Source: Amphiscolops sp. MND2022 (Eukaryota). Taken from it: 64,000 nt of DNA. Where the stretch lies: contig OZ076409.1 of assembly GCA_964187785.1 (NCBI GenBank), forward strand, positions 13,394,001 to 13,458,000. Direction: 5' to 3'. Within the stretch, counting starts at the first letter, position 1. Each line of letters begins with the position of its first letter. Both the position numbers and the translations under genes were made by a program. The notes under the pieces were generated by a model. That model was not told where the DNA came from. It made no database searches and saw nothing but the letters and a program-made list of their open reading frames with translations. Positions 11,801-33,149 of the stretch are shown one piece after another.

Positions 11801-14800
11801 CTCTAGATTTTCTCGTAGTCGTTGTCGATTTTCCCTGGTTCTCGTGAACGCTCCTTCAGGTAAATACCTCCTCCTTTAGGCGATATAAATGACCATTACG
11901 ATCACCTTCTAAGCCACGTACTGAACGGTGTCGGAGTCGACCACACACCAATTCACACTCAAATCCTAACAGGCACTCTAATTGTACTTATAAACCCACT
12001 CTCAACCTTACTCAACCATCTTCTTCATCCTCTCATAACCAGTCCTCCTCTGAACCCAAATTTGAAAATAACATGTATCGTCAAATTACTCCTTCTACTC
12101 TGAAACGTTCTATTTCCTCTAATATACATGCTAATATAACACCTTTGTTTGTAAACCTATATATCTTGTAACTTTTGTGGTAAACGGACGTTGAAAAACC
12201 CGTTTTTGACATGACAACAGTGACACCAATGAACGGAATAGAACTATCGACAGAAAACTCGCACGTAAACTGAATGGCTGGATGAAATCTGTTCAAACGT
12301 TCCAGAAACAGTTGAACGTGGGTTGGGTCTGAGAATAGTAGAAATGTGTCATCCACATATCTGACATAGAACACAGGGAAGAAATTATGGTTCTCGGCGA
12401 ACACGCTGATTTCCAGGAAACCAAGATAAAAATTCGCAAAGAGCGGTCCGAGAGGAGAACCCATTGAAACCCCGTCTATTTGCTCATACAAAACTCCGTC
12501 AAAAGTGAAGAGCATGTTAACAGTGGCCTTTTCCAACAGCAGCTGCAAGTCGCGTCTCTGGAGACGAATACCCTAGTCTTCGAGGAAACTAGACTCTCCA
12601 GAGGTGTCAAAAATATATATATGCTGTGTGTACTATAGAAGAGAGAGAAAGAAGTATTAGGTTAGGGTTATGTGTAAAAGATTTGTTATATAGGTGTGCC
12701 AACTTTAAAGTTGATCCAAGCAGCTAGAACCAAAGAATTTTTACTAGCAGGAATCGCTGGATAGCACTGTAGAGGGGCCAACACGTTACGCACGTCTGCG
12801 GTTGGAACGGAAGAAGGAGAGAAAGCCAACACAAATTCACTCAGAGGTGGTTGGAACGAAAAATTTTACTGAAAGGAATTACGCGAAGAAACGTAGTCAG
12901 AACCAAGAAAAATGACTGACAGGAATTACGTTGAGGAACGCAGTCAGAACCATAGCAACACGAATCAATTTCTAGTAGAAATTGGTTGCAACGTTGAAGT
13001 TAATAACAGTAGGCGATATTGAGAGGTGGCGAGACTGTGTGTCGAACAAAGAGATATCGGATGAGAAAGTCGAGAAAAGGTGTACAAAAATTGTAGAGTT
13101 GTGAAATGAATGGGAGAGAAAGAAGAATTTTCTTGGTCGCACCAATTGAGCTGTTAAAAAGTGTGGTGGTTGTTTCTTTTAGATGTTTTATTACAGACAT
13201 AAGAAGTCTAAGATTTTAACAGCGGGGTCGTCTTACTTTATACCTTGTAGCTAGCTAGTTCTAAGTCCAATCTTTTCTGAGATCTCAGTTCTTGAAGGAG
13301 AGAAGACCGATCGTCAGGATGAATTCTCAATTTCTCCGAGTAGATATATTCTATTAACTAGGGTAGGTTTCATCAATTAACAATGTGACAGCAACAGGAT
13401 GAATCTAAGAAGCTTGTTACAGGGTATATTAAATGAAGTTTCTTCTAGAATAATTAGCTTTCAGATAAGATTACAGTTGTTAACAGTTCAGATAATTTCT
13501 GAATTATAAAATCTTTGATGACATGCATCATGGCATCACAACTTCTTCCACCTAGTTCCACCTACTTCTTCCTTCTTCCAAATCACAGCTTTTTCGACTT
13601 ACCTGGCAATGATTTTTCATACCTTTTTCGTTGTGAGTTCAATAGCTTGCAGGAAAAAGATCAAAATGGCGTCCCAACGTTCGAAGCGTTTCCCAGATAT
13701 TGTGTCTATAACTCTACAGTGTCAACCTCCAATGTTCGTAAACCTACCTCATTCAACTCCTAGCCACTGCACTATCAACTCTACAACCTAGTGGAAGCAT
13801 GATACAATTGCAACGCAAAACACATCGATCCTATGATAGGCAATTTCGTTCTTCAAGCTACCTCTTCTCAACATAAATCTGACCAATTTTTTAAATTTCC
13901 TAAAAACAATCCTCTATCAGTTGCACTTGATTCCATTGCGATCAAGTGAAAAGATGACCTAATGTTCAGTCCACAACTTCTATGCCACATATTACTCACT
14001 TCGAATTCAAAACAAAGACAGAATACGTTGTTAAAGACCAGCCTGATTATCGGCACCTCTCATCCACGCGACCAATTAAAGTATTTAGTATTTATGATCA
14101 TAAACACTTTAATTCAATACTCGTTCCTTATGATCAATACCTTTTCTGAAATCGACATATTATGAACTTATGACAACCCCGATGACGGAACTGTAAAAGA
14201 ATCTACTCACTCTCATTGTTATCGTATTCCGTTTTCCATTACTACAAATGCACAATTGACCATAAACCCATCATGGGAACAATCCACAAACACCAAATCA
14301 CGGGTTTTAAAATAACTTTATTCATCTTAAAACCAAAGAAAACCGGAGGCCGTGCTATGATTTGCGCTAGATATTAGCTAGTTGAAAACGACTTTAGTGT
14401 GTCATTATACTTACCTTGTACACACACGAAGTTTCCACAGTAATATTGTTCACATCCTGCCTTTGTTGCTTTCGAGGAAGACTAAAAGCACAAAAACTAT
14501 TGTAGCACTAAGTTCAATGAACAAAAACTAACATCCTTCAACGCACTCTTTTTTGTACGAAATATATTCTCAAATAGCTTCTCAAATTGACCATGAACCC
14601 ATTATCAATCGCCTTTGCCTACTATGCAACCTTCTGCTTGTTTATTAAAAACGAAAAAGCGCAACTTCTAAAAAACTTCTTGCTTTGTCGACGTGAGCAC
14701 CGTGTATCTAAAATAGTAAGTATCCTCACACCCCAAGTTGAAACAGCTAAAGTAGTAGCGTTAACACTGTAGACGTATGTCTACTACATTGTTCACTCAC

Positions 14801-18900: not shown

Positions 18901-19220
18901 TTCAAGTAACCTAATTCGGATTTTTACCTATTCAAACGTTTCAATGCCGATGTTCACAAAACGATCGAGATACTGATTACATCAATCAAGATACGACTCA
19001 TCTTTGATCATTCTTCACAATAGTCACACTCCACGCACTCCATATTCCACAAGTTCAAAACCGTAATCGTGGAATTCTATTACGCCTATTTTTACCAAAT
19101 CATCCTACTAATTTGACCTTTCAAATACCTTTTCTTTTTATGCTTATGCTCATAACACCACTCTTATTTCAAATATTATTCTCTACATTACTCACTCTCT
19201 CGAACTCATTTCCACACACA
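9700..19220 (+). mobile_element. Heavily decayed Ty3/gypsy LTR retrotransposon (gag region duplicated; pol remnants ~15980-18700)
   Basis: Broken-frame motifs: NDIGQIATPF, IKVVLDTRNLNS (~17050-17085), DLMYA, YVHDILI (degenerate YxDD, ~17360-17380), RNase H AVDA, FTD, VADM.SR (~18025-18045). Many stops and frameshifts; LTRs not identified. Confidence 0.75.
12170..12613 (-). mobile_element. Internal Penelope RT fragment (part of the tandem duplication)
   Basis: Matches 8361-8803; ORF 12081-12548 reads GVSMGSPLGP...RYVDD and then runs into unrelated gypsy sequence. Confidence 0.9.
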
Positions 19221-19320
19221 TGTGTACGAAGTAGCACTTGGTGGGTCCGTACACGAAACGGGCATAAGGTGGGACGTACACACTTTTCCCTTGGTGGGAC
19301 ATACACAAAAACTTTAACTT

Positions 19321-19903
19321 GGCTATTAATAATACTTATTGACATGCATTGGTGGGACCTTAACACAAAATCTTTTCGGCGATTTTCAGCTATCAAGAAT
19401 ACTTACTGACATGCATTGGTGGGACCTTAACACAAAATCTTTTTGGCGATTTTCAGCTATCAAGAATACTTATTGACATGCATTGGTGGGACCTTAACAC
19501 AAAATCTTTTCTACAATTTTCAGCTATCAAGAATACTTATTGACATGCATTGGTGTGACCTTAACACAAAATCTTTTCGGCGATTTTCAGCTATCAAGAA
19601 TACTTATTGACATGCATTGGTGGGACCTTAACACAAAATCTTTTCGACAATTTTCAGCTATCAAGAATACTTATTGACATGCATTGGTGGGACCTTAACA
19701 CAAAATCTTTTCGACAATTTTCAGCTATCAAGAATACTTATTGACATGCATTGTCGGGACCTTAACACAAAATTTTTCGGCGATTTTCAGCTATCAATAA
19801 TACTTACTGACATGCATTGGTGTGACCTTAACACAAAATCTTTTCGACAATTTTCAGCTATCAAGAATACTTATTGACATGCAGTGGTGGGACCTTAACA
19901 AAA
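19321..19903. repeat. 67-bp tandem array, ~8.7 units
   Basis: Core gacatgcattggtgggaccttaacac starts at 19341, 19408, 19475, 19542, 19609, 19676, 19743, 19809, 19876. Confidence 0.95.
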
Positions 19904-21354
19904 CATTGTTTTTCCAATGTTATTCTTTACGAACGAAACTCGGTCATTGGAGAGAGCAAAGTATTGTAGCTACTGAATCAATTATTGACATTGAAAAAGA
20001 GGAGACAATCATTTATTGCATTCATTGTAAATGAATTTTTCTATAATGACTGAATGGTATTTACATTCCAATAACTTTGGAATTTACATTACTGGATTTA
20101 CACCCCAGTAACCCCATATTTGTTGTACACCTACTGAATAGTTTTCATATACCTTACTCTTTACAGTACACAGTTTGCTGGTAACAAGTTGACTGGTAAA
20201 TTAAAAATCAAAGTCATTGCAAATCTTTTATTCAGCCCAAATAACGTTATTACAACTCAAGTGAAGTTTCATACAATCTGGATTTGTTTGAAACGATCTC
20301 ATAGTTCATACTGTTTCTTTGTTATCCTGTCACTGATAACTGATCATTTTCTTGCGTCACTGATGGTCATGTTACGTATTTTATCTTTGATATACTGCCA
20401 CTTCGAAGCATGGGGGTACTTTTTCATTGCATCCAAACAAACTGCACGGCCAGGCAGTCGCCCTTGCATCATCTCTTCTCGGAATTGTTTTCTCAGCCTT
20501 TTTCATTGATCCAGTGGCCATGTTCGTCGTGTAGTACCAACAGGCTTAGGCTTCTTCTTACCACTAGTAGTTTTCTTTCGATTCCTTTTGACGGTTGTAT
20601 CAAATTCATCCGAAATGTCACCCGTGTCATGATCGACTGTTCCAAGTGAGAGACTGTTTTTGCTTCCCGAGGTTGAGGCCTGGGACATTCTGAGTGAGCT
20701 GTCTGCGACGTCACGGGATTTCGCATGATCGGTATTATCTTGGACTGCGGTTTCGTTATCCTTAACAAAACAACTTGTGATTACTCAAATCAAGTCAATC
20801 TGTTTTTACCTAAACGATTTTGTTTTGGCTATGTTATACAAAGTTCCATTTTTATGTTTTCGAGAGTTTTGAAAAGCAACGCGACGTGATAGAGAACAGG
20901 GCTTCATTGTCTAGATGCATGTTTATTGTGCACAATTTAGATGTGTAATGTTTCGTTGGGAGTATGATCCAAAAGAAACGCAATGTGAACAAGAATGGAT
21001 TTGTTTTGCTTCAGTAGAAACTGCATACGAAATAAACGAAGATCCGAATTATCCGGATACGAATTAAATGCAATTGACTGTACTGTTATCTGAAGTATTC
21101 AGAAGAATTTATGATTGGCTGGAACTTTTTCCTTTTCCCACCACACAAAGATGATGTTTTTGCAATTATATGTATCTCGATTGCGTTTCCAATGAAACAA
21201 TTCAGTTTTAAATTTATTCTTAGGGTGATAGTTCAGGATTCAGATACAAACTTTGTTCACACTTTTTCATAATAATAATAATATGCATGGAGCTTCAGAT
21301 GTTGTGATTATAATTATGATTAGTATAACTAAAATTGAAGTCCAGCATGTAGAT

Positions 21355-22162
21355 TCAAATGGTTTTTGATTTTTCAATAGATTCTTCCTGGAACCGATCA
21401 TCCAGTGTCGGTTGAATTGTGTCAAGGTCTTTCGAATAGGCATCCTCGAGTTTACCGCTGTCGACCATATACAACAATTTTGTAACTTTTGCTAGATTTA
21501 CGGCATCAGTGTGCATCCTGTAATACTTGTCGTGAACCCTTAAGTCATGACCCAGAAAATCAGCATCCCAAGTCCTCTGGTGCTGTGGTAAGTTCGAAAA
21601 CTGTGCTGCAGTTGCCATAAACTTTCGAAGCTTCGTTGACCTGAACAAAGGTTTGTTCTCCAGCTCAAAGTCTTTAGCGAACTTGTTCAGGGCCTCAGCG
21701 CTCCGATAATGCAGTTTTCCACCTTCTGTTTGGAAGAAGTACGTTTCATTTTTCAAGTTGTCATCATTTATCATGATATCGATAAGTTTGAGTGTATCCG
21801 GTGGCACCAACACTGGGACAACTTTTCCGCCCTTCCCGGGAAGTCGGAGGAGTGTGTAGACTTCTGTGAACTTTTCCTCTAATTTTGTAAGCTTCACGAG
21901 CTCATTATCCGCTGTCTTTGCTCGTTCACAGGCAAGACTCCGTTGTAATACCATGTCTCTTCTTTTGATTCCAGAAACTTCACGATCACGCTTCTTGTTG
22001 AAACTAACAAGATCAGCTATCACAGTTAGTTTGAGTTCGGCATAGTTATACTTAGTCAGTGCGAGGAGTTCTCGCACTTGTTTTCCAATGCTTTGCCGGA
22101 ATTTAATGATGTCGGTAGTGGGAATAACCAGGTGTATGCTCTCATTTTGCTTCTTGACCAAC
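21355..22162 (-). CDS. Tyrosine recombinase catalytic domain exon
   Basis: FNKKRDREVS (box I Arg), GKGGKVVPVLV (Lys), STKLRKFMAT (box II Arg), FLGHDLRVHDKYY (His and Tyr nucleophile) in the expected order. Confidence 0.82.
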
Positions 22163-24554
22163 CTAGAAAAAAACAAGGTGATTAGATTTGGGAAAGAAAA
22201 GGCTCAAAAGGTTTATCAGCTAATTTTAGGGGACCTAAATAAAACCTGTGGAGCAACTTTTTACATTGTGGCTTCTTTTAGGGGAGTTGTTGAGGAAACC
22301 AGATTCAGTGGGACATACACCCGCTACTTTACTTGGCCTTGGTGGGACGCAGTCTCAGTGAGACTTGAAAGGTGGGACCCGCTATGAAGCCTAAAGAAAA
22401 ACGACTGAAATTGGCTGAGTAACTATTTCAGACAAAGTTCCACCACGTTTTCTTACACTCCGCAACCACATATTTCTTCATTTTTTCCCATTTTTGGTGT
22501 TTCTTGTAAATATTTGCCTCAACAGTTTTTGAATGGTTCCAACTTACTCGTATTTAGCAGGTGCGGATATTTGAGCCCATTCAGTGTCAATAACTTTCTG
22601 AAACTGTTTAGCTTGTTGAGATATCTCCTTCTTCTCCCACACGAAAGCTTGATTTTGCAGAAAAGCAGCAGCTGTTTTCAGAATCGATCCCATTTTTACT
22701 TGGTAGGATTTTGCAAAATTTTTGAAACCGCCTCTTTCACTCTTGACCACATGTCTGGTCTGATTAATTCAATGAAATATAAGCATTCCAGTTGGAGAAC
22801 AAGTTTGGCCATGATTGGCATTCTGTCCTTGATCTGATTGTAGCCCTCGTCTGATTTTCGCTTGTTGAAATAATATTCCCCAACATACTTTATAAGGGGG
22901 TCATTTCGTATTAGTTCTGCAACTGGATCGTTTCTTAAATTGTTATAAAGGAATTCCTGGAATAATGTGTTATTATTTGCTTTGATTTCAAGCATCAATG
23001 CAAAGATGGCAGCTTTGATGTTTTTGTTTTTTCCTTCTTTATGGCTAGACTTGGTAACTTCCGGGCAGTCTAGTTTGTGCCGGTACATGGTTTTTCTTAT
23101 GAAGAAGCCAAGACAATCAGGGCAAGGAGCATAGTTATCAGCTGTTGGATTCTCCGTTTCCGTCGGGTCCCTGACTACAATCAGTTTGTCAGTGAATCTG
23201 TTCGTCTCTATGCATTTTTTGAAAACCGCGATGTTATATTTGTACTGTCCTTCATATGTGATCAAGCGGTATGTTCGATCTTTCTCTTTATGAAGTTTCC
23301 TCAAATCGCGTTCAGTCGTGGCGACTTCCTTACTTCCTTCTAATTCTTCTATTTCTAGATTTATTCGCTAAGGTAACTGACGCGGAGCTCTCTTTGATGG
23401 AATGATTGCAAATGGCGATGTAATTTGGCAACCATTGTCGCATCTTTGATATCTTCAAAAGGACAGTAAGGACAACATTTCTTCTTTTTGTATTTACCTT
23501 CAGAGACAACAATGTGGATCTTCCTGAGATACTTTGAGTTGAATCTCCCTTTTCCGGAACAATTAGCGTTGACATATTGTTGCATGTCGTCTTCAATGTT
23601 ATCATAGCTTTCCACAGTGTTTGCAACATCATCTGGTCCTGCAGACGACGTTGAAACTAGTGCGGTCTGATAACTACTTTCACTGATCTGAGAAATGCCT
23701 TCTCCCAATACCACCGTCTGGTTTGATGAAACTTTATTGGGTGTACTTGGCGCTCTTTCAGCTGTTGATGCAGATTTTGTTTCTTCTTCTGAAGACAGTT
23801 CTTCGCTACTTTCATCCCCATCAAAATTGTAACTTTCACATGACGACTCAGATGTTTCAGACGACGAATCGTCACTGGAACTCTCGCTTGACTGTTCAGG
23901 TATGTCGCTGTGTTATTCAGCTGAGTCAGAATCCAAATCTTCCTCAGGCTTCGGCATTAAGTGTTCGCGTCCTTTGTTGAGAATTCTCGAAGCCCTTGAT
24001 GTTCCCTCAGAGAGCTCCAACTGCTCAAAAAGGAAGAATCTTAATCTTTCTGGAAAACACAGTTCGGAAAGAAATATTTCGCTCTAAAACCACAGTGGCT
24101 TCCTTTTGGACTAAAATTGTATTGAGGTTATTTCCAGATAGTGAAGCATTATAATCTACATTCTTTCACAATGCGTTTGTTTTTACGTGCAAAATTCAGT
24201 CAAGCATTCCTCAACCACATTGCGTTTCATTTCACATGATTAAATTTAACAATTCTAAAAAAAATTTCAACAGCATGATTTTGAAATCTTGTGGCACTTC
24301 AATGAATGCGGTGCATGAAAGCCATCAAATTGCTTTCACTTTGAGGTGCAAACGCAATCAAAAAAAGATTTTTCAAAAAGTCAGTAGTTTCAAGTCTTAA
24401 ACGGGTAATTAATGAAAATGTGCTTACCTTCTGAGGTATTATACATTCGTTTTTGGCTTCAAAAGGTGTTTTCGGTTTTCTTTCTTCTAGTTTAGTCAAT
24501 TTGGCATACGATGCTTCAATGCTTCTAGTTACATTCTTCGGTTTCCGTGGTTGT

Positions 24555-25370
24555 TTAGGAGCTTTCGCTTCTGTGTCAGTAGTTTTGTTTTTCTCAACTT
24601 TGCCAGATTTGTTTTGCGATGATTTTGTTGAGATTCTCGGTTCCGTGTCCCCGCCTTTGCGTAACGGGTTAGGAGCCTTCTCTTCTGTGTCAGTAGTTTT
24701 GTTTTTCTCAACTTTGCTAGATTGGTTTTGCGATGACTTTGTTGAGATCCTCGGTTCCGTGTCCCCGTCTTTTCGTAACGGGTTAAGAGCCTTCTCTTCT
24801 GTGTCAGTAGTTTTGTTTTTCTCAACTTTGCTAGATTGGTTTTGCGATGATTTTGTTGAGATCCTCGGTTCCATGTCCCCGTCTTTGCGTAACGGGTTAA
24901 GAGCCTTCTCTTCTGTGTCAGTAGTTTTGTTTTTCTCAACTTTGCTAGATTGGTTTTGCGATGATTTTGTTGAGATCCTCGGTTCCGTGTCCCCGTCTTG
25001 GCGTAACGGGTTAGGAGCCTTCTCTTCTGTGTCAGTAGTTTTGTTTTTCTCAACTTTGCTAGATTGGTTTTGCGATGATTTTGTTGAGATCCTCGGTTCC
25101 GTGTCCCCGTCTTGGCGTAACGGGTTAGGAGCCTTCTCTTCTGTGTCAGTAGTTTTGTTTTTCTCAACTTTGCTAGATTGGTTTTGCGATGATTTTGTTG
25201 AGATCCTCGGTTCCGTGTCCCCGTCTTTGCGTAACGGGTTAGGAGCCTTCTCTTATGTGTCAGTAGTTTTGTTTTTCTCAACTTTGCTAGATTGGTTTTG
25301 CGATGACTTTGTTGAGATCCTCTGTTCCGTGTCCCCCGCAATATTGTGTAATGGGTTAAGAGCTTTTTCT
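24555..25370 (-). repeat. 114-bp coding tandem repeat, ~7 units (38-aa unit)
   Basis: Register marks at 24601, 24715, 24829, 24943, 25057, 25171, 25285; unit DTEPRISTKSSQNQSSKVEKNKTTDTEEKAPNPLRKDG. Confidence 0.95.
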
Positions 25371-26184
25371 ACTGTGACCGCTGCGTTTTGTATCTCAATT
25401 TTGATAGATTCGTTGCATGATTGCAATGACACAGGCTGAAGTGGAATTGTGAGGTTCTTCGCACTAAGATTAAGATACAAATGGAAACCTCTTTCACTGG
25501 AACGTCAGATTATTTTCCTTTTCTTTGCGTTGTTGATGCAACTCTTTTTTCTGAATCACCGGGATTTCTTTTTCAGGTCCAGATTGTTCGAAGTGAGTTT
25601 CCAGTTTCTTCTTCCTTGTCACTGTTATGAAGGGCTCCTCCACCTTACGAGATATTTTGTTTTTGGAATCAGCGGCTTCTATATTATCTATATTACTTTT
25701 TATTCCCGAAGCTTGGGGATTTCGTCTCCATTCTGCATGAGGAAAACCATAATCATTGCGCAACTCCTAACCTGTGAATATGAACGGATAAACAAGAATG
25801 ATCAATTGATATTTGTTTCTTTTAATTGTCTCACAAAAATGACTTTTTGGTGAAAACTTTGGCAATAGGCAGTGTTTTCCAATTTTCAGATGCCCCGTTT
25901 ACGATACCAGAGTTGGTGGGACATAGATTCCACTTTTTACTGAGCCTTGGTGGTACCTCATACGAAACAGTGCAAAATGCATGGAATTTGCTAAAAAACC
26001 GTTACGGCCGTGTAAAATAATAGCCTGGTACTTCCAAGTGTGTATTACTGCAAAACCGTTCAATATATCGTTACGCTTTGATCAACACTTGGTTGGACAC
26101 TGATCCCTTTTTCACTGAAGCTTGGTGGGACTCACACTCAGTACCTCAAACGGCCTTCTGTCTTGTAAAAAAAATCAAACTAAC

Positions 26185-26578
26185 CAGACTGAATCGGGCG
26201 AGTTGCCAGGAAGATACAAGGGTTTCTACCTTCGTCATCAGTGACCTTCTTCATCCGACAGTTAGCAGCCACTGCCCTGTCCTTATCGTTGATGAATCGA
26301 GCCATTCCTGAATTCTTTTCGTCAGAAGTGTCAATGAATACCGCTTGTTTTCCTTCTCGCAGTTCCATCACATAGTCGAAGTTTGACGTTTTTGTTGTAC
26401 TTCTCGGTCCCCAGTAAGTGAGTAAAAACTCTTTGTCGTCAAAACTTCTGTTAGCAAAAAGCCCTCGCCCCGTGGCCCCGTTTGCAAACTGTACAGTTTT
26501 CACTTGGAAGCCTTCTAGGTCTGAGTAAAGAAAAGAGCTCCAGGGCTCTGCTTTCCGGGCAGCCCTTCTTGTTGACAT
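26185..26578 (-). CDS. SET-domain exon (SETD8/KMT5A-like lysine methyltransferase fold)
   Basis: GRGLFA (motif I), EFLLTYWG, FIDTS...GMARFIND...NCRMK, FLATRPIQSG; spliced to G*ELRNDYG...WR in the next exon (starts 25771). Confidence 0.85.
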
Positions 26579-26943
26579 TCAAGTCCTAGAAAGTTACGTT
26601 TAATAAAGTCCTGACAGACAAGAAATTGTTTCTAACCCCATCTCACTAGTGAACTCGATGTACATTTGTAAGCTTACAAAACATTGAATTAAAAAACTAC
26701 TCCGAAGAAATGCTTCAATTACGAAAGACCATTAGTATACTGATACTTCCAGATTCTGTAAGGTAGCGACAAATGATTTAGGCAAAAACAAAGTTACACG
26801 TAGCCTACAAGTCGGAAGAATAATTGAGCAAATTCAGAGTTGAAGCTGAATTTTTTGCCTCAACTGTTCTCTTGAATTCTCAAATCCCCAACATTTGTAC
26901 ATTTATCATATGAAACTTTCGATTCTTTCCTATACCTTGTATA

Positions 26944-27343
26944 CAGAGGTATGACAGCGATAGCGACAATTCAGCATGAACTAGCGATAGCGATAGTTAG
27001 CGACAAATTAAAGCGTTAGCGAACTTTTTTTTTACTAGAAATTCAGAATTAACTAATGCAATAAGTTTTTGCGAATAACTTGACACATCATTTTGGCTTT
27101 TTCCTTTCCAACAGTTATTCAATGAGCCCGGCTTTGTAGACGAAGTACAATTTGCCCAAAGCTTCAATATTTTTTAATTTTAAAGTACATTTCTGAAATT
27201 TTAATATGAACATTCTGAAAATCAGATTTTCAAATAAGCGATAGCTTTAGCGAACCACCCATTTTGTTGTAGCGATAGCGATGAAATCAAATCATTAGCA
27301 ATGTTAGCAATTTGCGATAAAATTGTTAGCGATCACACCTCTG
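26944..27343. mobile_element. hAT-type MITE, 400 bp, nested between the SET and JmjC genes
   Basis: TIR cagaggtatga/tcacacctctg (10/11), 8-bp TSD cttgtata (26936-26943, 27344-27351), subterminal tagcga repeats. Confidence 0.85.
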
Positions 27344-27532
27344 CTTGTATAGTATTTACTACGTAAGTAAAAAACTAAGCAAGAGTGCTCAGTAAGTAAA
27401 AAACACATGACACTAAATAAAGAAAGCAAACTGTTTGCATGATCATCAGTCAATAAAGAGCCGAAGATCAAGTTTTGGAACTGAAATTGAAGACTTCCTC
27501 AAGCTGCACTATCTGGACTCTGTTGTTTCTCC

Positions 27533-29463
27533 TCAACGTTGTAGCCACTCCTCAATTACATTCCAACGCAAGTCGCTGATGGTTGCTGCATAGCGATACA
27601 AGAACTCTGTCCAGGGATTGTCCAGCGGAAATTCTTTACCAGTTGGTCGCTCATCAGCTTTATTGATCTGCAGCATCTCACGCATAGCGGCTTTCGTGAT
27701 AGGACTCGCGCGGTTTTTATTAGCCCATTCCATGTAGAGCTGCATCACTATCAAACCTGGGAAGTTTTGGAACAAGAAACGTCTGGCCAAACCTGCGTCT
27801 AGCTCCTTCTTGAAGGCTAGGGCACTCTGGTGGAGGTGGGTTTCCATAATGAAGTTACACGCATAAGCAAACAAAGTGAATCCACTGGCTTGGTAAGAAG
27901 ATAGCGTCTCCTTCTTGTACCACTATAGGATAGCATGTGACATCTCGATGGAAACCGAAGAAATGGAGCTGAAAACAACAATAATCAAAGTTGAGAGAAC
28001 TAACTTCTACTTTAAACGTCGGAAGTTTTCTAAGAAGTTTCAGCCCCTTGAAAGTATCTTGTAACTCGTGAAAAGCAAACCCTTTTTTGGAAATAACTTC
28101 AGTCATAACCTTCAGCTTTTAACAGTTGATGACAACAATCACATAACCAATTACAACTTAACAATAAGGAAAAAGATCGCAATTTTTAATTTAAACTGAA
28201 TTAAAAATTGAGTTTTCCTTTTTACAAACCTTTTCCATTCACTCTCTCGCCATTCGTCAAAACGCTGTTGGACTTTCTGGGTTGGCTCTACGATGAAAAA
28301 TTCTTTCCTTCCCTTCAACAAAAAGTAAAAAACAGAAGTTCCGGTGAAATCCTGATGCCAATCCGTCTGTGATTCCTGTTCAGTCATCAAGAGGTAATTG
28401 CTGATGCCAGCAGTCAAACTCTTCTCGGATTGAGGGATCCATTCTTGAGGTGTAAGTATAACCCAGAGAATAATCTTTTATCAAGTTTGGAATCGAAAAT
28501 GTGTGTTTCATTGTCCTCTGATGCGGACCAATGTCAAGGTCGATGATGTTCATTGGATGAAGATCTTGCTCGCGGAATGGGTCTTCATGATGCTCCAAAA
28601 ACTTGCCAAGGTCATATTGTTCTCCTCTTCCTGGAGTGCTGAAAAACACACATTTACTTTCCTGCTGCAAGGGATTCCCTCAATTATTTTACGGAAGGTA
28701 CCATGTATGGCACTAGGAACAACAAGACCAGGAAGTTTGCCCCTAGCTTGTCTCAAAACTACAGGACATGGTGTACTTCTCGTCATTCAGTTCTTGAAAT
28801 CCTGGCGGTTGTTGACAGTGAAACTTTGGGTGACTGGTACTTTCCCTCGAATTAAATCCAAAACCTTTTTTGAACCAATTTTGGAACGATTGTGTGAACC
28901 CCATTTGAAGGAATCTAAATACGGCAGTTCAATTTCCGGTATCTTTTGTTTTTCTTCAACAGCAGTCTCTTCTTCAAGAGCAATCTCTTCCCCGGGAGCA
29001 GTCTCTTCTTCAGGAGCAGTCTCTTCTTCAGGTGCAGTCTCTTCAGGAGCAGTCTCTTCTTCGCGAGCAGTCTCTTCTTCACGAGCAGTCTCTTCTTCAC
29101 GAGCAGTCTCTCTTTCTCTAGGAGGGGTTACTAATTCGGGAGGAAACACTTCACCAGAAGCAATTACTTCTTCAAAAGTAACTGTTTCACCGAAAAGTTC
29201 TCCTAGGGGAGGAATAGACTGTTGCCTCTCGAGGCTAACTCTGGGTGTCCTGTCGAGAGAAGTTGTTGCAGCTTCGGATTCGGGAGAAGGTACATCATCT
29301 CTGGTTACATCAACAGGAGCATCTACTGGAGTTGTAATACGCGATGTGGTTCTAGCTTGCAGACGTCTACATTGTTGATTTTCTTGTTTATGACGGAGTA
29401 AATTCCAATGTCTCGTTAATACTTTTCCACAAACATTGCATTCGAATGAACCCTTCTGACGTT
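27533..29463 (-). pseudogene. Zinc finger + acidic repeat + JmjC histone demethylase (KDM2/KDM7, JHDM1/PHF8-like), disrupted
   Basis: FECNVCGKVLTRHWNLLRHKQENQQC finger; NYLLMTEQESQTDWHQDFTGTSVFYFLLKGRKEFFIVEPT (HxD); QEGDAIFLPSQWIH (distal His); FAYACNF. In-frame stop 28787-28789, frameshifts, intron ~28225-27969. Confidence 0.82.
28960..29110 (-). repeat. 15-18-bp coding minisatellite (EEETAP/EEETAR)
   Basis: Repeated gcagtctcttcttc units on the + strand. Confidence 0.85.
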
Positions 29464-29699
29464 CTGAAGCAACAGTTTAAGTTGATACGTTAAGGATTTG
29501 AACCACAGTGAAAGTCGGTTATATGGGTAATCAATGAATACCAATAACACTTTTTGTTCTGATGATCAATTTCAATACATATCTTTTCCAGGAAACTTCT
29601 TCACTTGTTTAAGCAAAGCAGACTAAGTGGGACATAGACCCTTGTTTTTATTAGGCCTTGGTGGGACATAAAAGTTGAGAGCCGCTATTAAACCTTTCA

Positions 29700-30267
29700 C
29701 GCCAATATAAATGCACAGCGGAAAATACAGTAGCTCGACGCTTCCTCCTTGTTGATAATATTTTTGCAAATGGGCCCACTTCGACACTGCTGGACGTGAT
29801 ATTTGAGTTATGAATATCCCTTGGCGCGAGTGGAGTTCTTTGTGCCTCGTTTTTCATTTTGGACTCGATTTTGATCTTTTGGATTTCATCTGGATTTTTG
29901 GGATGAGTGTGGGGTTGATTTTCGAAAAAAATTCCATTTTCAACAGCGCCTGAGCCACAACAACCTTTTTTGTAAGAATGGCATCGCAAGTTGATTTTGC
30001 CTTTATACTCGTTGTTTTTGGTGTAAATGTAGCCATTCGCACAATAGATGAAAGAACCCTTGCGGCTACCTTCAATTTTTTCGAATTCCATTTTGACCTG
30101 AAGTACTCGAAAAAACTATTGAAATTTGAATACGTCCATTTTCGAACCGGGAATAGTATCTAAATTTTTAGATATTATTCCCGAAAAATGATTTCAGCCA
30201 TGTCAGTTTTAGATATTATTCCCGAAATCTTTTTAGATATTATTCCTTGGATATTATTCCGCTCCCC
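29700..30267 (-). mobile_element. 5' fragment of a Mutator-like (MULE) transposon with FLYWCH-type finger
   Basis: ORF 29651-30091 (GYIYTKN...LRC...C.G....HTH) without a DDE domain; terminus ggggagcggaataatatcc on the minus strand at 30267 with tandem gatattattcc repeats (~30170-30260). Confidence 0.6.
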
Positions 30268-30940
30268 TAAAGAAAGCGTTGCATGCAGATATTAAATAAG
30301 TTTTGACCACTTTAAAATTTTTTGATTTCAAAATAATTTTGACAGAAAAATTCTTCCGATCTTATCCTAATACGTGTATTTTCGAAAAGCCTAGTTTTAC
30401 AGCTCATTTTATTTGAAGTTTTAGAATTATTTGTGAATCAAAAGCATATCAGGGGCTTCAGTGAAATCAGGGGTCGATTGAACATAAAATAATTCAAAAA
30501 GTGCAAGTCAGTCTTCAGTGAAGAGGCGCTCTACAAAATTAGAATGCAAAACATTTCGTCTAAAGATTTATTCAACAATTAAAATGTATTTCATTTGTTT
30601 GAGTCGAAAATTATATCTGTTCAAAAATATATTTTTGAAAATATTTATTTTTTACAACCCTGCAGAGACCCCACATTTTACTAGGCCTTGGTGGGACATA
30701 AAATGTATTTTCATGTACTTCTTTATTGGATTTATTATATGGTTATCATTTGTAAGTGTTTTTTCCTCGTATTGAATGATTTTGTACTCATGTTTTTTAT
30801 TTCAAACACTTTATCAGGATCTTTTCTGTTTACCAAAGCCAACCCCCCTCACAGTACGAGCGAAAATTGTAATTTCCCCAGCATCAACGATGAGTTTTAT
30901 TTAGGTGCAGTTAGAGCTATAAATATTATTTTTATTACAA

Positions 30941-30941
30941 A

Positions 30942-31019
<78 letters not shown>

Positions 31020-31020
31020 T
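30941..31020. repeat. (ATT)n microsatellite
   Basis: About 25 att units. Confidence 0.97.
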
Positions 31021-31228
31021 TCAATGATAATTTCACTTGACCTTTTAACTGGGGGTATTAAATTGGTGGGTAACCAGGGGTTGGTAATATTGTATTGCAA
31101 TGCAATACAAGCCTACCAATAACTAATTTTTGTGCTTGAGAAAAAATAAAATATTTTTATTTCTTCGATCTCGAAATAAGAATTTTTTATTTATTTTTTG
31201 ACAATAATTTTTCCAATATTTATTCATT

Positions 31229-31428
31229 NNNNNNNNNNNNNNNNNNNNNNNNNNNNNNNNNNNNNNNNNNNNNNNNNNNNNNNNNNNNNNNNNNNNNNNN
31301 NNNNNNNNNNNNNNNNNNNNNNNNNNNNNNNNNNNNNNNNNNNNNNNNNNNNNNNNNNNNNNNNNNNNNNNNNNNNNNNNNNNNNNNNNNNNNNNNNNNN
31401 NNNNNNNNNNNNNNNNNNNNNNNNNNNN
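31229..31428. other. Assembly gap (200 N)
   Basis: Run of n; round length suggests a placeholder size. Confidence 0.99.
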
Positions 31429-31577
31429 ATTTTGTCAACATAGTTAGCCCTGTCCATGACAACGACGCGTCGTTGTCATGGACAGGGCTAACTATGTTGA
31501 CAAAATGATGAAGATCCTAGACGATGTACGAAATTTCGCGTGATTGACGCTGACAACCAACCAGAGGACGCAAGCCC

Positions 31578-33149
31578 TTGGTCTCCCACCCGCTCCTTCA
31601 GAAAGAGCAGATCTTGACCGCGTACTTACGTCGATGGAAAAGAGAAGTTGCTAACGATGTCGTAACGAGATTCGTCCCCATGGTTCCAGATTGGCACACA
31701 TGTACGGTCTGCAAAGCTGCACAAACAAGGAGTCCCCTGAGACCTGTTCTGAGTGCTACTGGCACTTACAATTTCAAGCTGGCGAAGTGGTTGAATTCGA
31801 TCTTACAACCGCTCATCCCTGCGAAACACACAGTTGACAGTGCTTTTGATTTCGTGGATATGCTGGATGACGTCCCAAGTGCAGAAACTATGGTTTCGTT
31901 TGACGTGGTCTCACTTTTCACGAACGTTCCAGTCGGCGAGACGATTCAAGTCATTTTGGATGCTGTTTTTGACACCTCTGGAGAGTCTAGTTTCCTCGAA
32001 GACCAGGGTATTCGTCTCCAGAGACGCGACTTGCAGCTGCTGTTGGAAAAGGCCACTGTTAACATGCTCTTCACTTTTGACGGAGTTTTGTATGAGCAAA
32101 TAGACGGGGTTTCAATGGGTTCTCCTCTCGGACCGCTCTTTGCGAATTTTTATCTTGGTTTCCTGGAAATCAGCGTGTTCGCCGAGAACCATAATTTCTT
32201 CCCTGTGTTCTATGTCAGATATGTGGATGACACATTTCTACTATTCTCAGACCCAACCCACGTTCAACTGTTTCTGGAACGTTTGAACAGATTTCATCCA
32301 GCCATTCAGTTTACGTGCGAGTTTTCTGTCGATAGTTCTATTCCGTTCATTGGTGTCACTGTTGTCATGTCAAAAACGGGTTTTTCAACGTCCGTTTACC
32401 ACAAAAGTTGCGACAAAGGCGTATTTTTACATTCCCAGTCGTTTTGTGACGAGAAATACAAGCGGAACCTCATGCCGATGCTTTGTCACCGAGCGTTCGC
32501 CTTGTCATCGTCCTGGACAGGTTTCCACGAAGAGATCGAGAGATCAGTGAAGTGCCTGACACAACTGGGTTATGATGAATGTGTCCTTGGAAGCCAGGTT
32601 CGTCACTTTCTGACGCGTCGTCTGGGTCCGGAATCGTCAACTCAGAAAGAGAAATCCAAGTTGGTCCCGTTGGTGTTGCCCTACAAAGGTGAAAGTGCGA
32701 AGAAGCGCCTTATTTCGTCCTTTTCAGCCCTTTGCAGGCGTGTCAACACTGAATGTCCTGGTCTGGTTTTTACATCGACGAGTGTTGGGTCTCTGGTTAG
32801 GCTTCCTGAAGCCAAGCCGAAAGTCGTAAACAGCGGCGGTGTCACCTACATGTTCAAGTGTCCGCAGACGGGTTGTGAATCCCGCTACGTAGGTGTCACA
32901 AGGCGTCATTTGTTCCAGAGAGTCCGAGAACACCTTGCCGAGCGTAAAGATGGCTCATCGTCAGTGATTTTTGATCATCTGATGTTTCACGATGTAAGAC
33001 CAACTTTTGAGACTCATCTTGAGTGTTTCAGCATCCTCAAGAAGTCGTCCAGTTGGAGGTCTCTGCTCTTCACCGAGGCATATCACATAAAACACCAAAA
33101 ATGTGATCTTAACACTCAGACGGACTCTATTCCTCTGCGTGTATTTTAA
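31578..33149 (+). CDS. Penelope-like reverse transcriptase / GIY-YIG endonuclease (frameshifted before ~31740)
   Basis: PLRPVLS, MVSFDVVSLFTNVP, GVSMGSPLGP, RYVDD, GVTY...C...C...YVGVTRRHL...R..EH, terminal LN.Q. Confidence 0.93.
   Translation: MVSHPLLQKEQILTAYLRRWKREVANDVVTRFVPMVPDWHTCTVCKAAQTRSPLRPVLSATGTYNFKLAKWLNSILQPLIPAKHTVDSAFDFVDMLDDVPSAETMVSFDVVSLFTNVPVGETIQVILDAVFDTSGESSFLEDQGIRLQRRDLQLLLEKATVNMLFTFDGVLYEQIDGVSMGSPLGPLFANFYLGFLEISVFAENHNFFPVFYVRYVDDTFLLFSDPTHVQLFLERLNRFHPAIQFTCEFSVDSSIPFIGVTVVMSKTGFSTSVYHKSCDKGVFLHSQSFCDEKYKRNLMPMLCHRAFALSSSWTGFHEEIERSVKCLTQLGYDECVLGSQVRHFLTRRLGPESSTQKEKSKLVPLVLPYKGESAKKRLISSFSALCRRVNTECPGLVFTSTSVGSLVRLPEAKPKVVNSGGVTYMFKCPQTGCESRYVGVTRRHLFQRVREHLAERKDGSSSVIFDHLMFHDVRPTFETHLECFSILKKSSSWRSLLFTEAYHIKHQKCDLNTQTDSIPLRVF

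Follow-up and report, generated by a model that had tools for sequence, protein, structure and literature searches.

The window, that is the whole stretch of 64,000 nucleotides that was analysed, contains two minus-strand genes close to a repeat array: a zinc-finger/JmjC gene and, ~1 kb downstream of it, a five-exon gene that encodes in one long protein a KMT5A-like SET domain, a linker of 38-amino-acid repeats, a zinc-finger/core-binding region, a tyrosine-recombinase catalytic domain and a conserved tail. The exons of the second gene were mapped from copy A, another copy of the same element, and the following features were identified.

19213..19321, plus strand: left terminus, beginning with CACACACATGTGTACGAAG and containing the palindrome ACACATGTGT and three GGTGGG(A/T)C motifs within the first ~90 bp
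19322..19900, plus strand: subterminal tandem array of a 67-bp unit (TRF: period 67, 8.7 copies, 93% matches) with ATGCAYTGGTGGGAC in each unit
20347..20784, minus strand: last exon of the SET-recombinase gene, with a basic stretch and the conserved C-terminal tail domain; 27 gap positions and one stop relative to copy A
21355..22203, minus strand: recombinase catalytic exon, an open 282-aa ORF in which the catalytic residues R, K, R, H and Y have been retained
22547..24110, minus strand: recombinase N-terminal exon, encoding a stretch rich in Ser/Asp/Glu, two zinc-finger-like motifs of Cys/His and the presumed core-binding region; interrupted by two in-frame stops
24302..25821, minus strand: SET exon 2, with the last part of the SET domain (GEELRYDYG where the copy is intact) and, after it, the linker of 38-aa (114-bp) repeats at 24555-25336 (TRF: period 114, 6.9 copies)
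26183..26578, minus strand: SET exon 1, beginning at a Met and intact; matched by Pfam SET with E 7.4e-07 and 30 bits, above the cut-off of 22.4
27536..28006, minus strand: JmjC exon 2, encoding the second His that binds iron, the remainder of the JmjC barrel and a helical domain at the C-terminus; frameshifted, 21 gap positions relative to copy A
28154..29492, minus strand: JmjC exon 1, with a C2H2 zinc finger, an acidic repeat of an 18-bp unit (28952-29111) and the JmjC domain in its first half, where T-x-x-H-x-D and the 2-oxoglutarate Lys are located; in three frames in the window
29651..30115, minus strand: FLYWCH zinc-finger ORF upstream of the JmjC gene (Pfam FLYWCH E 2.9e-05), a relic
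30116..31228, no strand assigned: non-coding continuation of the element, with homology to other copies up to 31228 and motif modules at 29658 and 30688; cut by a scaffold gap

Domains and decay of the two genes

An earlier note on this DNA had placed a zinc-finger/JmjC gene on the minus strand, and the gene is indeed present there in frameshifted pieces between 27533 and 29476 (28787-29476, 28380-28679, 28151-28477, 27855-28118 and 27533-27922). In the window gene the Pfam matches to JmjC/Cupin_8 and C2H2 are weak and all below the curated cut-offs. An unbroken homologue in another copy, however, matches PDB chains of PHF8, KDM7A and KDM2A, with E-values of 2.7e-10 for exon 1 (PHF8/KDM7A) and 7.8e-11 for exon 2 (PHF8), and the iron and 2-oxoglutarate residues (T-x-x-H-x-D...K...H) can be aligned and are kept in this intact copy. 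The full-length relative P0226, which has the same architecture as the JmjC protein of the element, finds PHF8 as its best PDB match (7.4e-24), followed by ceKDM7 (2.1e-20), KDM7A (4.7e-19) and KDM2A (5.1e-19). Judged by these similarities the JmjC domain is closest to the KDM7/PHF8 subfamily. A feature of this subfamily is an N-terminal PHD finger reading H3K4me3; no match to a PHD finger was found in the JmjC protein, which yields only the C2H2 finger, below the Pfam cut-off. Exon 1 of the youngest subfamily has no start codon ahead of its zinc finger, and the model of the JmjC gene is thus without a 5′ exon. The FLYWCH ORF further upstream is found only in the subfamily of the window copy; it has an internal 1-bp frameshift in all three other copies of this subfamily that were compared, the segment contains a stop in most of its genome matches, and in the youngest subfamily it is replaced by 42 bp.

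The spliced gene that had been proposed to join a SET domain to a tyrosine recombinase could likewise be reconstructed, with SET exon 1 intact and the downstream exons mapped to 20347-25821. The reading frame is kept across the GT-AG junctions and the order of the exons is colinear with single vertebrate proteins. In addition, the recombinase N-terminal exon can be aligned colinearly with the region that precedes the catalytic domain in 14 relatives, and the tail domain aligns to the C-termini of P0074, P0086 and P0118. The 3′ end of the catalytic exon is unlike that of other copies, as 108 bp of the nearest relative are absent at ~21396.

Profile searches with Pfam and PDB do not assign the recombinase family (one of 33 members matches Phage_integrase, with E 0.0019), and the NCBIfam XerA match of the catalytic ORF (E 1.2e-4) is far below the cut-off. 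In the alignment of the 33 members R72, K124, H219 and Y228 are invariant and R193 is found in at least 90%. The canonical set of tyrosine recombinases is R...K...(H)xxR...H/W...Y, and the His of the H-x-x-R box is a Thr in this family. An AlphaFold2 model of the catalytic homologue of copy A (pLDDT 82) retrieves XerH, XerA, XerD, Cre and topoisomerase IB as top Foldseek matches, all of them tyrosine recombinases or topoisomerases IB, with a modest best E-value of 2.7e-3. The predicted fold of the catalytic domain is Xer/Cre-like, which is that of a tyrosine recombinase.

The SET exon of the element alone retrieves no PDB chain at E ≤0.01. The SET exon of copy A matches the family relative P0218 (BLASTP E 2e-10), whose best PDB match is KMT5A with 2.1e-28 compared to 7.9e-16 for the next family. 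The SET domain is thus closest to KMT5A, and a monomethylation of H4K20 would be its predicted activity. In the cofactor pocket the residues NH are replaced by ND in the element and in all nine vertebrate relatives that were aligned, and because this replacement is found throughout the family a methyltransferase activity is not assured.

Both genes of the window copy are decayed, as the earlier note had stated. The JmjC frame breaks directly after the second iron-binding His, the recombinase N-terminal exon has its two stops, and in SET exon 2 a stop stands in place of the first Glu of GEELRYDYG, the first Tyr of which is changed to Asn. In copy A this motif, which includes the ELxYDY tyrosine of KMT5A/SETD8, is kept, and exon 2 could be aligned with the SET domains of the vertebrate SET-recombinase proteins.

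Copies, linkage and extent of the element

A genome pattern search with the left-terminal 39-mer yielded 254 matches, 133 on the forward and 121 on the reverse strand, compared to none for the control. The left-terminus matches listed are all single-orientation left ends and there is no inverted copy among them. In 10 other copies with readable junctions the homology starts at positions 19212-19215 of the window, and the sequences outside are CA-rich and unlike between copies. Thus, the copies do have a common left terminus and different flanks, as had been expected for a mobile element. Of the boundaries proposed in the earlier note (19230 and 30700) the left one is sharp but lies at 19213, whereas the right one was not confirmed: the homology of the window copy to other copies extends to 31228, which is the edge of a 200-N scaffold gap (31229-31428), and other copies continue beyond this point. 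To the right of the gap no further element sequence was found in the window. The statement that the block begins where gypsy sequence stops is not borne out either, since only one of the 30 ORFs scanned between 9.7 and 19.2 kb gave a family match, a reverse transcriptase fragment at 12084-12572. The immediate left flank is an old repeat of unknown type with 66-73% identity to its other copies.

The linkage of the genes was determined by comparing the match tables of the JmjC domain (150 genome matches scored of 589 candidates), the SET exon and the recombinase. Among the matches listed, the SET exon is found on the expected side, on the same strand and less than 3 kb away in 124 of the 150 JmjC matches (median distance 1353 bp). 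Likewise, the recombinase is accompanied by SET in 119/138, by JmjC in 114/138 and by both in the expected order in 105/138 of the matches listed; another arrangement was seen for a single JmjC-SET pair among them. The JmjC matches alone are spread over at least 60 contigs, and at over 100 loci, distributed among many contigs, the three coding parts lie on one strand in a common order and with a common spacing. A gene present in so many copies is not the syntenic host ortholog of KDM2/7, and the central claim of the earlier note, namely one tyrosine-recombinase mobile element with both a SET and a JmjC gene, is supported. We conclude that a JmjC demethylase gene and a SET domain fused to a recombinase are carried by one mobile family with ~250 copies in the genome.

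The exons are still open in most copies. A by-eye count from the match tables found stop-free exons in 115/138 (recombinase), 137/150 (JmjC) and 140/150 (SET) of the matches listed. The identity between copy A and the C13 copy is 99.67% across 16.2 kb, and identities up to 99.7% are found between copies on different chromosomes. It could be argued that a host cluster of a JmjC gene and a SET-recombinase-derived gene has been multiplied by segmental duplication and is not mobile at all. In fact some copies are located within large regions that are duplicated or mirrored, such as the two on C5 (13.26-13.31 Mb and 13.52-13.57 Mb) whose internal spacing is identical, and in one of nine comparisons to copy A 1.4 kb of common sequence extend beyond the left end. 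In the other eight comparisons, however, the boundary positions agree to a few bases and the flanks are unrelated. The left ends in both orientations, the number of contigs, the high identity across chromosomes and a recombinase with intact catalytic residues also argue against this explanation, which we regard as extremely unlikely.

The mobile element is far larger than the ~11.5-kb block that had been proposed. Other copies run on for at least 29 kb, tens of kb past the block in the window. Within 30 kb, tail markers were found on the correct side and the correct strand in 33/40 and 23/27 cases and in the wrong arrangement in 0/67, and more than 100 copies combine the three coding parts with the long tail. 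For 17 of 43 left ends an inverted module is found, at a median distance of 50.3 kb, and the order is consistent in 14/14. These repeated landmarks suggest that the full element has a length of ~50 kb.

Repeated motifs also connect the parts of the element. The sequence TTGGTGGGAC, with at most one mismatch, has 22 matches in the window compared to 2.84 ± 1.65 expected (none of 100 shuffles reaches 22), and 17 of these lie within 19238-30697, all on the plus strand, in agreement with the suggestion that one motif is shared from end to end. The terminal 67-bp array, which had also been recognized before, varies in the number of its units among the element copies. Sites of the 10-bp motif CTTGGTGGGAC are found in this array, in introns and between the genes; their orientation is uniform in the left half of the element and reversed in the right half. 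A 31-nt motif module has 748 matches in the genome and none in the control; among the first 100 matches listed, 64 lie inside known copies and one lies outside, within 90 kb.

In the tens of kb beyond the genes no coding domains were found in the portion read, which extends to ~29 kb in copy A. Neither a reverse transcriptase nor a transposase nor a viral domain is present in the ORFs of at least 60 aa that were scanned (from copy A 68 ORFs of the tail and those of the genes, from copy B 9 ORFs, and the window ORFs). These results bear on two further explanations. According to the first, the block belongs to an endogenous large DNA virus, or to a virus-like element, in which the tyrosine recombinase serves as integrase and the histone enzymes manipulate the host. 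The large size of about 30-50 kb, with ~20 kb of the longest form outside the portion read, would fit a virus, and tyrosine-recombinase integrases are reported for endogenous large DNA viruses of crustaceans (PMC10871703). However, the ORFs scanned in the tail of copy A and in copy B encode no capsid, polymerase, packaging ATPase or other domain, the genes contain spliceosomal GT-AG introns and the ~250 copies have a transposon-like subfamily structure. Thus, a viral origin is very unlikely. The second explanation is a tyrosine-recombinase retrotransposon of the DIRS/Ngaro type with the reverse transcriptase outside of the block. Two ORFs bearing a reverse transcriptase are close by in the window (12084-12572 and 31554-33149), but both are outside the element boundaries and absent from other copies, and neither the window part nor the scanned ORFs of copy A contain a reverse transcriptase or RNase H beside the recombinase. 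The introns also argue against retro-copying, which would lose them. We have therefore rejected membership in DIRS/Ngaro, to which we assign next to no probability.

Taken together, it is highly probable that a very large class II (DNA) mobile element is represented in the window by one decayed copy, of which 19213-31228 form the left arm with the genes. The tyrosine recombinase is the sole mobilisation enzyme that could be recognised in the portion read.

Selection on the genes and a possible role in anti-silencing

The dN/dS ratios were measured between subfamilies, which differ by 13-18% in DNA across the JmjC domain region, and are given with 95% confidence intervals where available. We obtained 0.16 (0.05-0.41) for SET exon 1, 0.39-0.42 (0.25-0.67) for the JmjC domain, where no more than 2 of 1000 bootstraps attained 1, 0.25-0.27 for JmjC exon 2 and 0.29-0.31 (0.18-0.53) for the recombinase N-terminal exon. 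The SET, JmjC and recombinase parts are under purifying selection between subfamilies. For the N-terminal half of the JmjC protein the ratio is 0.82-0.86 and the confidence interval includes 1.

A different explanation is that the JmjC gene is a passenger, that is, a host-derived or foreign gene which inserted once beside an ancestral SET-recombinase element and has been copied along without service to the element. A single ancestral landing followed by carriage would give equal linkage, and it is only the selection signal that argues for use. Capture does occur in the same upstream region, as the decayed FLYWCH exon demonstrates, the ratio near 0.8 in the N-terminal half fits a passenger, and none of 52 long recombinase relatives in other animals, the proteins themselves having been scanned, has a JmjC domain. 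On the other hand, the JmjC domain itself is constrained between these diverged subfamilies, its iron and 2-oxoglutarate residues are kept and most of the listed exon copies are free of stops. Moreover, JmjC relatives at 44-52% identity with the same architecture of zinc finger, repeat, JmjC domain and tail form multi-member clusters in other assemblies, which points to an old, maintained gene of mobile DNA and not to a recent capture. Hence, we consider the passenger explanation unlikely and favor a JmjC gene that is used by the element.

How the two enzymes might serve the element can be sketched as follows. The recombinase would excise the element as a circle and reinsert it by conservative recombination, as has been proposed for Cryptons; the crossover could take place at or near the terminal palindrome ACACATGTGT, with a preference for CA-rich targets. 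CTTGGTGGGAC is a putative binding site for one of the zinc-finger parts of the element. Such binding would bring the demethylase to the chromatin of the element itself, where a repressive methyl-lysine would be removed; by analogy with KDM7, candidate marks are H3K9me1/2, H3K27me2 or H4K20me1. Similarly, the SET domain might be brought in to write a mark on the element chromatin or at the recombination site. We infer a self-directed anti-silencing role, and the substrates would be those of SETD8 and PHF8.

Comparison with known systems

Relatives of the SET-recombinase protein are found in vertebrates. The earlier note had mentioned predicted proteins with SET and tyrosine recombinase from other animals, and in fact 10 of the 52 long recombinase relatives contain a SET domain. 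These are records of teleosts and dendrobatid frogs annotated as "uncharacterized protein LOC..." or "KMT5A-like", for example, XP_077388776.1, XP_048861681.1 and XP_077121903.1. Like the element protein, they have a KMT5A-like SET domain with ND, a linker, a zinc-finger region, the recombinase and the tail, and their recombinase is 30-37% identical to that of the element. In the literature searched we found neither a paper on these teleost and frog proteins nor a description of the combination of JmjC and SET-recombinase genes.

Among the described mobile elements, Cryptons are similar in several aspects: they are eukaryotic class II elements with a tyrosine recombinase as sole mobilisation enzyme, and introns are possible (Kojima and Jurka, 2011, PMC3212892). 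In our element no reverse transcriptase was found in the ORFs scanned. Cryptons are devoid of long terminal repeats and have short direct repeats or microhomology at both ends; the left junction of our element is consistent with a short target microhomology. However, the Cryptons described have a few kb and usually one ORF, and those of animals are without an extra domain (PMC3212892), whereas our element has at least 29 kb, a recombinase fused to a SET domain and, in addition, the gene for the JmjC protein. In addition, none of the 33 recombinase family members matches DUF3504, the animal CryptonA type.

Starships of filamentous fungi resemble the element in being very large, with a tyrosine recombinase at one end and further intact genes (PMC10104507, PMC11162782 and PMC13465315); in our element the recombinase gene is ~2 kb from one end, akin to the position of the captain. 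Their captain contains DUF3435, and Starships are reported to be unique to Dikarya (PMC13465315); the host of our element is animal-like, and neither the recombinase exons nor their relatives match DUF3435. Furthermore, Starships range from tens to hundreds of kb in length and have dozens of cargo genes of various kinds (PMC11162782 and PMC13465315), whereas our element has a small fixed gene set and is mostly without recognised coding sequence. Fungal DNA transposons with TET/JBP dioxygenases likewise carry a dioxygenase able to erase a silencing mark, presumably to their own benefit (PMC12730594). The substrate of these enzymes is methylcytosine in DNA and not a histone lysine, and they occur in fungal hosts together with DDE transposases (Kyakuja/Dileera/Zisupton and others), in contrast to the tyrosine recombinase of our element.

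With regard to the histone enzymes, the JmjC protein has the iron and 2-oxoglutarate residues in common with its best PDB matches PHF8, KDM7A and PHF2 (KDM7) and KDM2A. Unlike these, it has no PHD finger but the C2H2 finger and the acidic tandem repeat instead, it possesses a C-terminal helical domain of its own, and its gene is multi-copy and transposon-borne. SETMAR (PDB 3bo5), which is among the PDB matches of the relative P0218, is likewise a SET domain fused to a recombination enzyme of a transposon. SETMAR is a single-copy primate host gene that arose by capture of a mariner DDD transposase. In our case, the fusion is encoded by a multi-copy gene that belongs to the element itself, and a tyrosine recombinase is its enzyme part.

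Gene content of the window copy

The left arm of one decayed copy of the element, the putative tyrosine-recombinase transposon, lies in the window. Its genes follow each other from right to left on the minus strand in the order FLYWCH, JmjC, SET, repeat exon, recombinase and tail:

29651–30115, minus strand: FLYWCH ORF (Pfam FLYWCH, E 2.9e-05, just over the curated cut-off)
29492–27536, minus strand: C2H2-finger/JmjC gene, split over several frames (Pfam JmjC/Cupin_8 and C2H2, both under the cut-offs)
26578–26183, minus strand: SET exon with Met at its start (Pfam SET, E 7.4e-07, over the curated cut-off)
25821–24302, minus strand: exon comprising the last part of the SET domain plus the 114-bp tandem repeat
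24110–22547 and 22203–21355, minus strand: two recombinase exons
20784–20347, minus strand: tail exon of the SET–recombinase gene
19322–19900: tandem repeat, period 67, 8.7 copies
24555–25336: tandem repeat, period 114, 6.9 copies

The JmjC, SET and recombinase genes, the tandem array and a repeated motif had been pointed out in an earlier note, and the ORFs, the Pfam matches and the repeat and motif counts show that these features are real. The motif TTGGTGGGAC, allowing up to one mismatch, is found 22 times in the window compared to 2.84 ± 1.65 times in shuffled sequences, and 17 of the 22 are found inside 19238–30697, every one on the plus strand.

This copy is dead, as its JmjC gene is spread over several frames, a stop stands in place of the first Glu of GEELRYDYG in SET exon 2 (the first Tyr is changed to Asn), the N-terminal exon of the recombinase has two stops and 108 bp are absent at ~21396. 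It comprises the left 12 kb only and is followed by a scaffold gap. The nearest relative of its subfamily is ~96.8% identical.

The FLYWCH ORF upstream of the JmjC gene resembles a captured exon and is uninterrupted in the window. All three other copies of the same subfamily that were compared carry a 1-bp frameshift at an internal T-run of this segment, most genome matches to the ORF contain TAA, and in the youngest subfamily 42 bp replace the 885-bp FLYWCH segment. Open FLYWCH ORFs with 80–89% identity are present elsewhere, for example, at C10:15460732, C8:37635165 and C2:24043102 (C-numbers denote contigs of the assembly). The shared frameshift rules out that the FLYWCH exon is a working part of the JmjC gene.

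To the left of the element, ORF positions between 9000 and 17000 recur every ~3810 bp (e.g., 9693–9950 and 13503–13760), which indicates a duplication, either in tandem or LTR-like. This part of the window contains a reverse transcriptase fragment (12084–12572), and the GC skew is strongly negative between 10 and 20 kb (−0.26 to −0.34). Directly right of the scaffold gap there is an open ORF of 531 aa with a reverse transcriptase domain on the plus strand (31554–33149; RVT_1, E 4.6e-08), which is unrelated to the element.

Linkage, ends and size of the copied unit

The assembly (1.07 Gb, 1929 contigs) was searched in six frames with the ORFs of the window. For the recombinase ORF the best 138 of 661 candidate matches were scored (87–96% identity to the window), for the C-terminal JmjC ORF the best 150 of 589 (78–96%) and for the SET exon the best 150 of 550 (89–97%). 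Linkage was counted by comparing the coordinates of these three sets of best-scoring matches, and the counts are therefore lower bounds. At least 124 of the 150 JmjC matches have a SET match on the same strand and towards the recombinase, not more than 3 kb away and at a median distance of 1353 bp. Seen from the recombinase, SET is found within 2–12 kb in at least 119 of the 138 matches, JmjC within 3–14 kb in at least 114 of 138 (median 6140 bp) and both together in at least 105 of 138. Fourteen of the 150 JmjC matches have neither partner, and one JmjC–SET pair is arranged differently, both among the matches listed. The genes are thus mobilised together, and these counts reject the view that JmjC occurs only once or is never linked to SET–recombinase copies. 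Copy number and linkage also rule out that the JmjC gene is the host KDM2/7 orthologue.

The element has a sharp left end. A 39-mer from the left terminus has 254 matches in the genome, 133 of them forward and 121 reverse, and the reversed control sequence has none. When 20 kb each of ten other copies were compared, the match to the window started at 19212–19215 in all of them, and the sequences to the left are unlike each other except for one pair with 1.4 kb in common outside the end. Apart from this pair, the check proposed in the earlier note, whether copies with different flanks have common termini, comes out positive at the left end. The left junctions of the window and of nine other copies (ten in total, as one of the ten other copies failed to match the anchor) consist of a variable CA-rich tract followed by ACATGTGTACGAAGTAGCACTTGGTGGGTC, and the palindrome ACACATGTGT is located at the extreme left end of the element. 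Among the listed matches to the left 39-mer we found no inverted partner. No second sequence nearly identical to the window's left flank, as a candidate empty site, was found in the genome; the other matches are 66–73% identical.

The 10–25 bp just outside the terminus are CA-rich and different in nearly every copy (window 19190–19218; L021:3790–3825, a sequence piece around another copy; eight others), with the shortest tract in the window copy. This suggests that the element either inserts into (CA)n-like targets or has a terminal microsatellite that changes quickly. The common 1.4 kb are found in L021:2437–3819 and in L038, the flank of a copy on contig C3, and these two copies belong to different subfamilies. 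The shared flank contains an ORF of 193 aa (L021:3260–3838) and is 92.7% identical, which equals the identity of the element itself. Both insertions might have hit one repeat family at an identical position; alternatively, the flank might have moved together with the element.

The right limit at 30700 proposed in the earlier note is wrong, since homology to other copies extends to 31228, the edge of the 200-N scaffold gap; in the sequence right of this gap we found nothing belonging to the element. In fact the element is much larger than the block described before. Copy A (C1:31861365–31894364, of which 33 kb were read) matches other copies from the left end at 3820 to the end of the sequence read, that is over at least 29 kb. 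Two markers were located relative to a core gene: of the scored matches to the one ~20 kb from the left end, 33 of 40 are within 30 kb of such a gene with the expected side and strand, as are 23 of 27 for the one ~26 kb from the end, and a wrong arrangement was found in none of these 67. In addition, the genome has 748 matches to a 31-nt module that includes the motif (control 0), and the positions of this module were taken for 43 exact left ends on contigs C1–C6. The module recurs in the same orientation 11–35 kb inside in 28 of the 43, and in inverted orientation at a median of 50.3 kb in 17, nine of which fall at 48.3–50.8 kb; in 14 of 14 cases the inverted module is located beyond the direct ones. 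Among the first 100 modules listed, 64 are inside copies with exact left ends and one is within 90 kb outside. The copied unit is at least 29 kb and, in one subfamily, probably ~50 kb long.

Two copies on contig C5 (13261667–13308662 and 13523419–13570037) are mirror images with equal internal spacing ~215 kb apart, which suggests a large inverted duplication including the element.

Coding capacity, enzymes and selection

Copy A has uninterrupted genes. The JmjC gene consists of exons of 467 and 164 aa separated by ~150 bp, and the exon ORFs of the SET–recombinase gene comprise 132, 659, 522, 287 and 137 aa. GT–AG junctions are in frame at the joints between SET exons 1 and 2, between the N-terminal and catalytic parts and between the catalytic part and the tail. 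The order of the exons is colinear with single long vertebrate proteins, for example, the relative P0086 (SET 64–171, N-terminal region 462–673, catalytic 668–945, tail 996–1055). Among 68 ORFs of at least 60 aa in copy A, a set which genes with short exons would escape, there was no credible domain and matches below threshold were at chance level. Nine ORFs of copy B, another copy of the same assembly, gave nothing but a RING-like match below threshold (L042:7563–7829, plus strand; zf-C3HC4_3, E 1.7e-05, under the cut-off), located in a 5-kb stretch specific to the subfamily of copy B. Copy A contains a 600-bp MITE-like insert with 53-bp inverted ends (L022:5508–6108) which is absent from window-type copies, and inverted 38-bp tandem arrays at 17.5–18.4 kb and 31.6–31.8 kb, which may be the sign of an element nested in the tail.

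The intact JmjC exons match the PHF8, KDM7A, PHF2 and KDM2A chains (E 2.7e-10 and 7.8e-11), and the T-D-x-H-x-D motif, the Lys and the second His are aligned with these chains. P0226, a relative of 595 aa from another assembly, is 46% identical, has the same layout of C2H2, tandem repeat, JmjC and tail, and matches PHF8 at 7.4e-24. The SET exon aligns with the SET domains of vertebrate SET–recombinase proteins (P0218, E 2e-10). The best PDB match of P0218 is KMT5A (2.1e-28; next family 7.9e-16), and the whole SET family has ND where KMT5A has NH.

For the recombinase, phmmer found 2394 relatives at E up to 0.001 among 1.84 billion representatives. Among 52 long relatives, a SET domain is present at the N-terminus of ten and a JmjC domain in none. 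The ten records come from teleosts and dendrobatid frogs and carry the name "uncharacterized protein LOC...", with fragments named "KMT5A-like". In the family alignment R72, K124, H219 and Y228 are invariant and R193 is nearly so. The exons and their relatives gave nothing meaningful against Pfam, and a PDB profile search gave no match at E up to 1. The assignment as a putative tyrosine recombinase depends on two results, an NCBIfam match to XerA (1.2e-4) and a fold search with an AlphaFold2 model (pLDDT 82, pTM 0.76), which returned XerH, XerA, XerD, Cre, Flp, the Tn1549 integrase and type IB topoisomerases as best folds (best E 2.7e-3, probability 1.00). The Protein Atlas gave generic leads only, namely hypothetical clusters of eukaryotes in the case of the recombinase and unspecific JmjC clusters in that of the demethylase.

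The coding parts are under selection, as judged from copy A and a diverged subfamily (L031–L034) with 82–87% DNA identity over the JmjC–SET part.

dN/dS between copy A and the diverged subfamily; the two comparison copies come from one subfamily and are not independent (95% CI in brackets)
SET exon 1: 0.16 (0.05–0.41)
JmjC exon 2: 0.25–0.27 (0.12–0.59)
Whole JmjC domain: 0.39–0.42 (0.25–0.67)
Recombinase N-terminal exon: 0.29–0.31 (0.18–0.53)
JmjC N-terminal part (zinc finger and acidic repeats): 0.82–0.86 (CI includes 1)

Counted by eye among the best-scoring matches, 115 of 138 recombinase, 137 of 150 JmjC and 140 of 150 SET exons are free of stops. Over 16.2 kb, copy A is 99.67% identical to a copy located on a different chromosome, and the left flanks of the two are unlike. 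Taken together, the dN/dS values, the stop-free exons and this identity indicate very recent activity of the family and a need for its SET and JmjC parts. Given the 99.7% identity on different chromosomes, the family is probably still active. The observation of the earlier note is real, and the data support its main interpretation, one mobile element with SET and JmjC genes.

Between L031–L034 and copy A the recombinase exons are 95–98.7% and the JmjC–SET part 82–87% identical, a mosaic which suggests recombination between subfamilies.

Proposed mechanism and relation to known systems

The motif of copy A has one orientation between the left end and ~16 kb and the opposite orientation from ~19 kb on. 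We conjecture that this switch fits binding sites arranged towards two ends. The motif CTTGGTGGGAC is the predicted binding site for a zinc-finger part of the element, with the C2H2 finger and the N-terminal region of the recombinase as candidates. By analogy to Cryptons, for which this is proposed in PMC3212892, excision and integration might proceed by a circular intermediate. The crossover would take place near the terminal palindrome, the circle junction would join the right end to the left-end CACACACATGTG, and the targets would be CA-rich. The demethylase may strip repressive methyl marks off the element's own chromatin.

A joint reading, which we consider rather unlikely at present, is that the element is an animal counterpart of Starships, a recently active transposon of ~50 kb with a tyrosine recombinase that polices its own chromatin via the 10-bp motif. 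The motif, spread over the full element, would recruit the self-encoded KDM7-like demethylase and also the KMT5A-like methyltransferase tethered to the recombinase. The element would thereby be kept out of H3K9/H4K20-methyl heterochromatin, or its own ends would be marked for recombination. If the dispersed motif does recruit the enzymes, the element would be a natural sequence-targeted chromatin editor. Were the joint reading true, it would stand for a new superfamily of chromatin-editing animal transposons, since the SET–recombinase fusion is widespread in fish and frogs.

Transposons are the usual targets of silencing by histone methylation. In the open full-text literature, with Repbase and subscription journals outside this scope, neither a JmjC gene nor a SET–recombinase fusion was found in any transposon, and we found no report of one carrying a histone demethylase or a pair of writer and eraser. 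The family offers an abundant and concrete test case, with ~250 copies, many with open exons and some 99.7% identical across chromosomes. Hundreds of vertebrate gene models named "uncharacterized protein LOC..." and "KMT5A-like" probably are transposon genes.

A few transposons carry tools against DNA methylation, and the nearest functional precedent is provided by the fungal DNA transposons with TET/JBP dioxygenases described in PMC12730594. The likeness to Cryptons lies in the proposed way of working; compared to that group, the element differs in size, has more than a single ORF and its recombinase is not of the DUF3504 type. With Starships it shares the large size and the extra genes behind a terminal recombinase, whereas it has no DUF3435 captain and is not fungal. 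Large recombinase-driven elements with intact extra genes are not limited to fungi.
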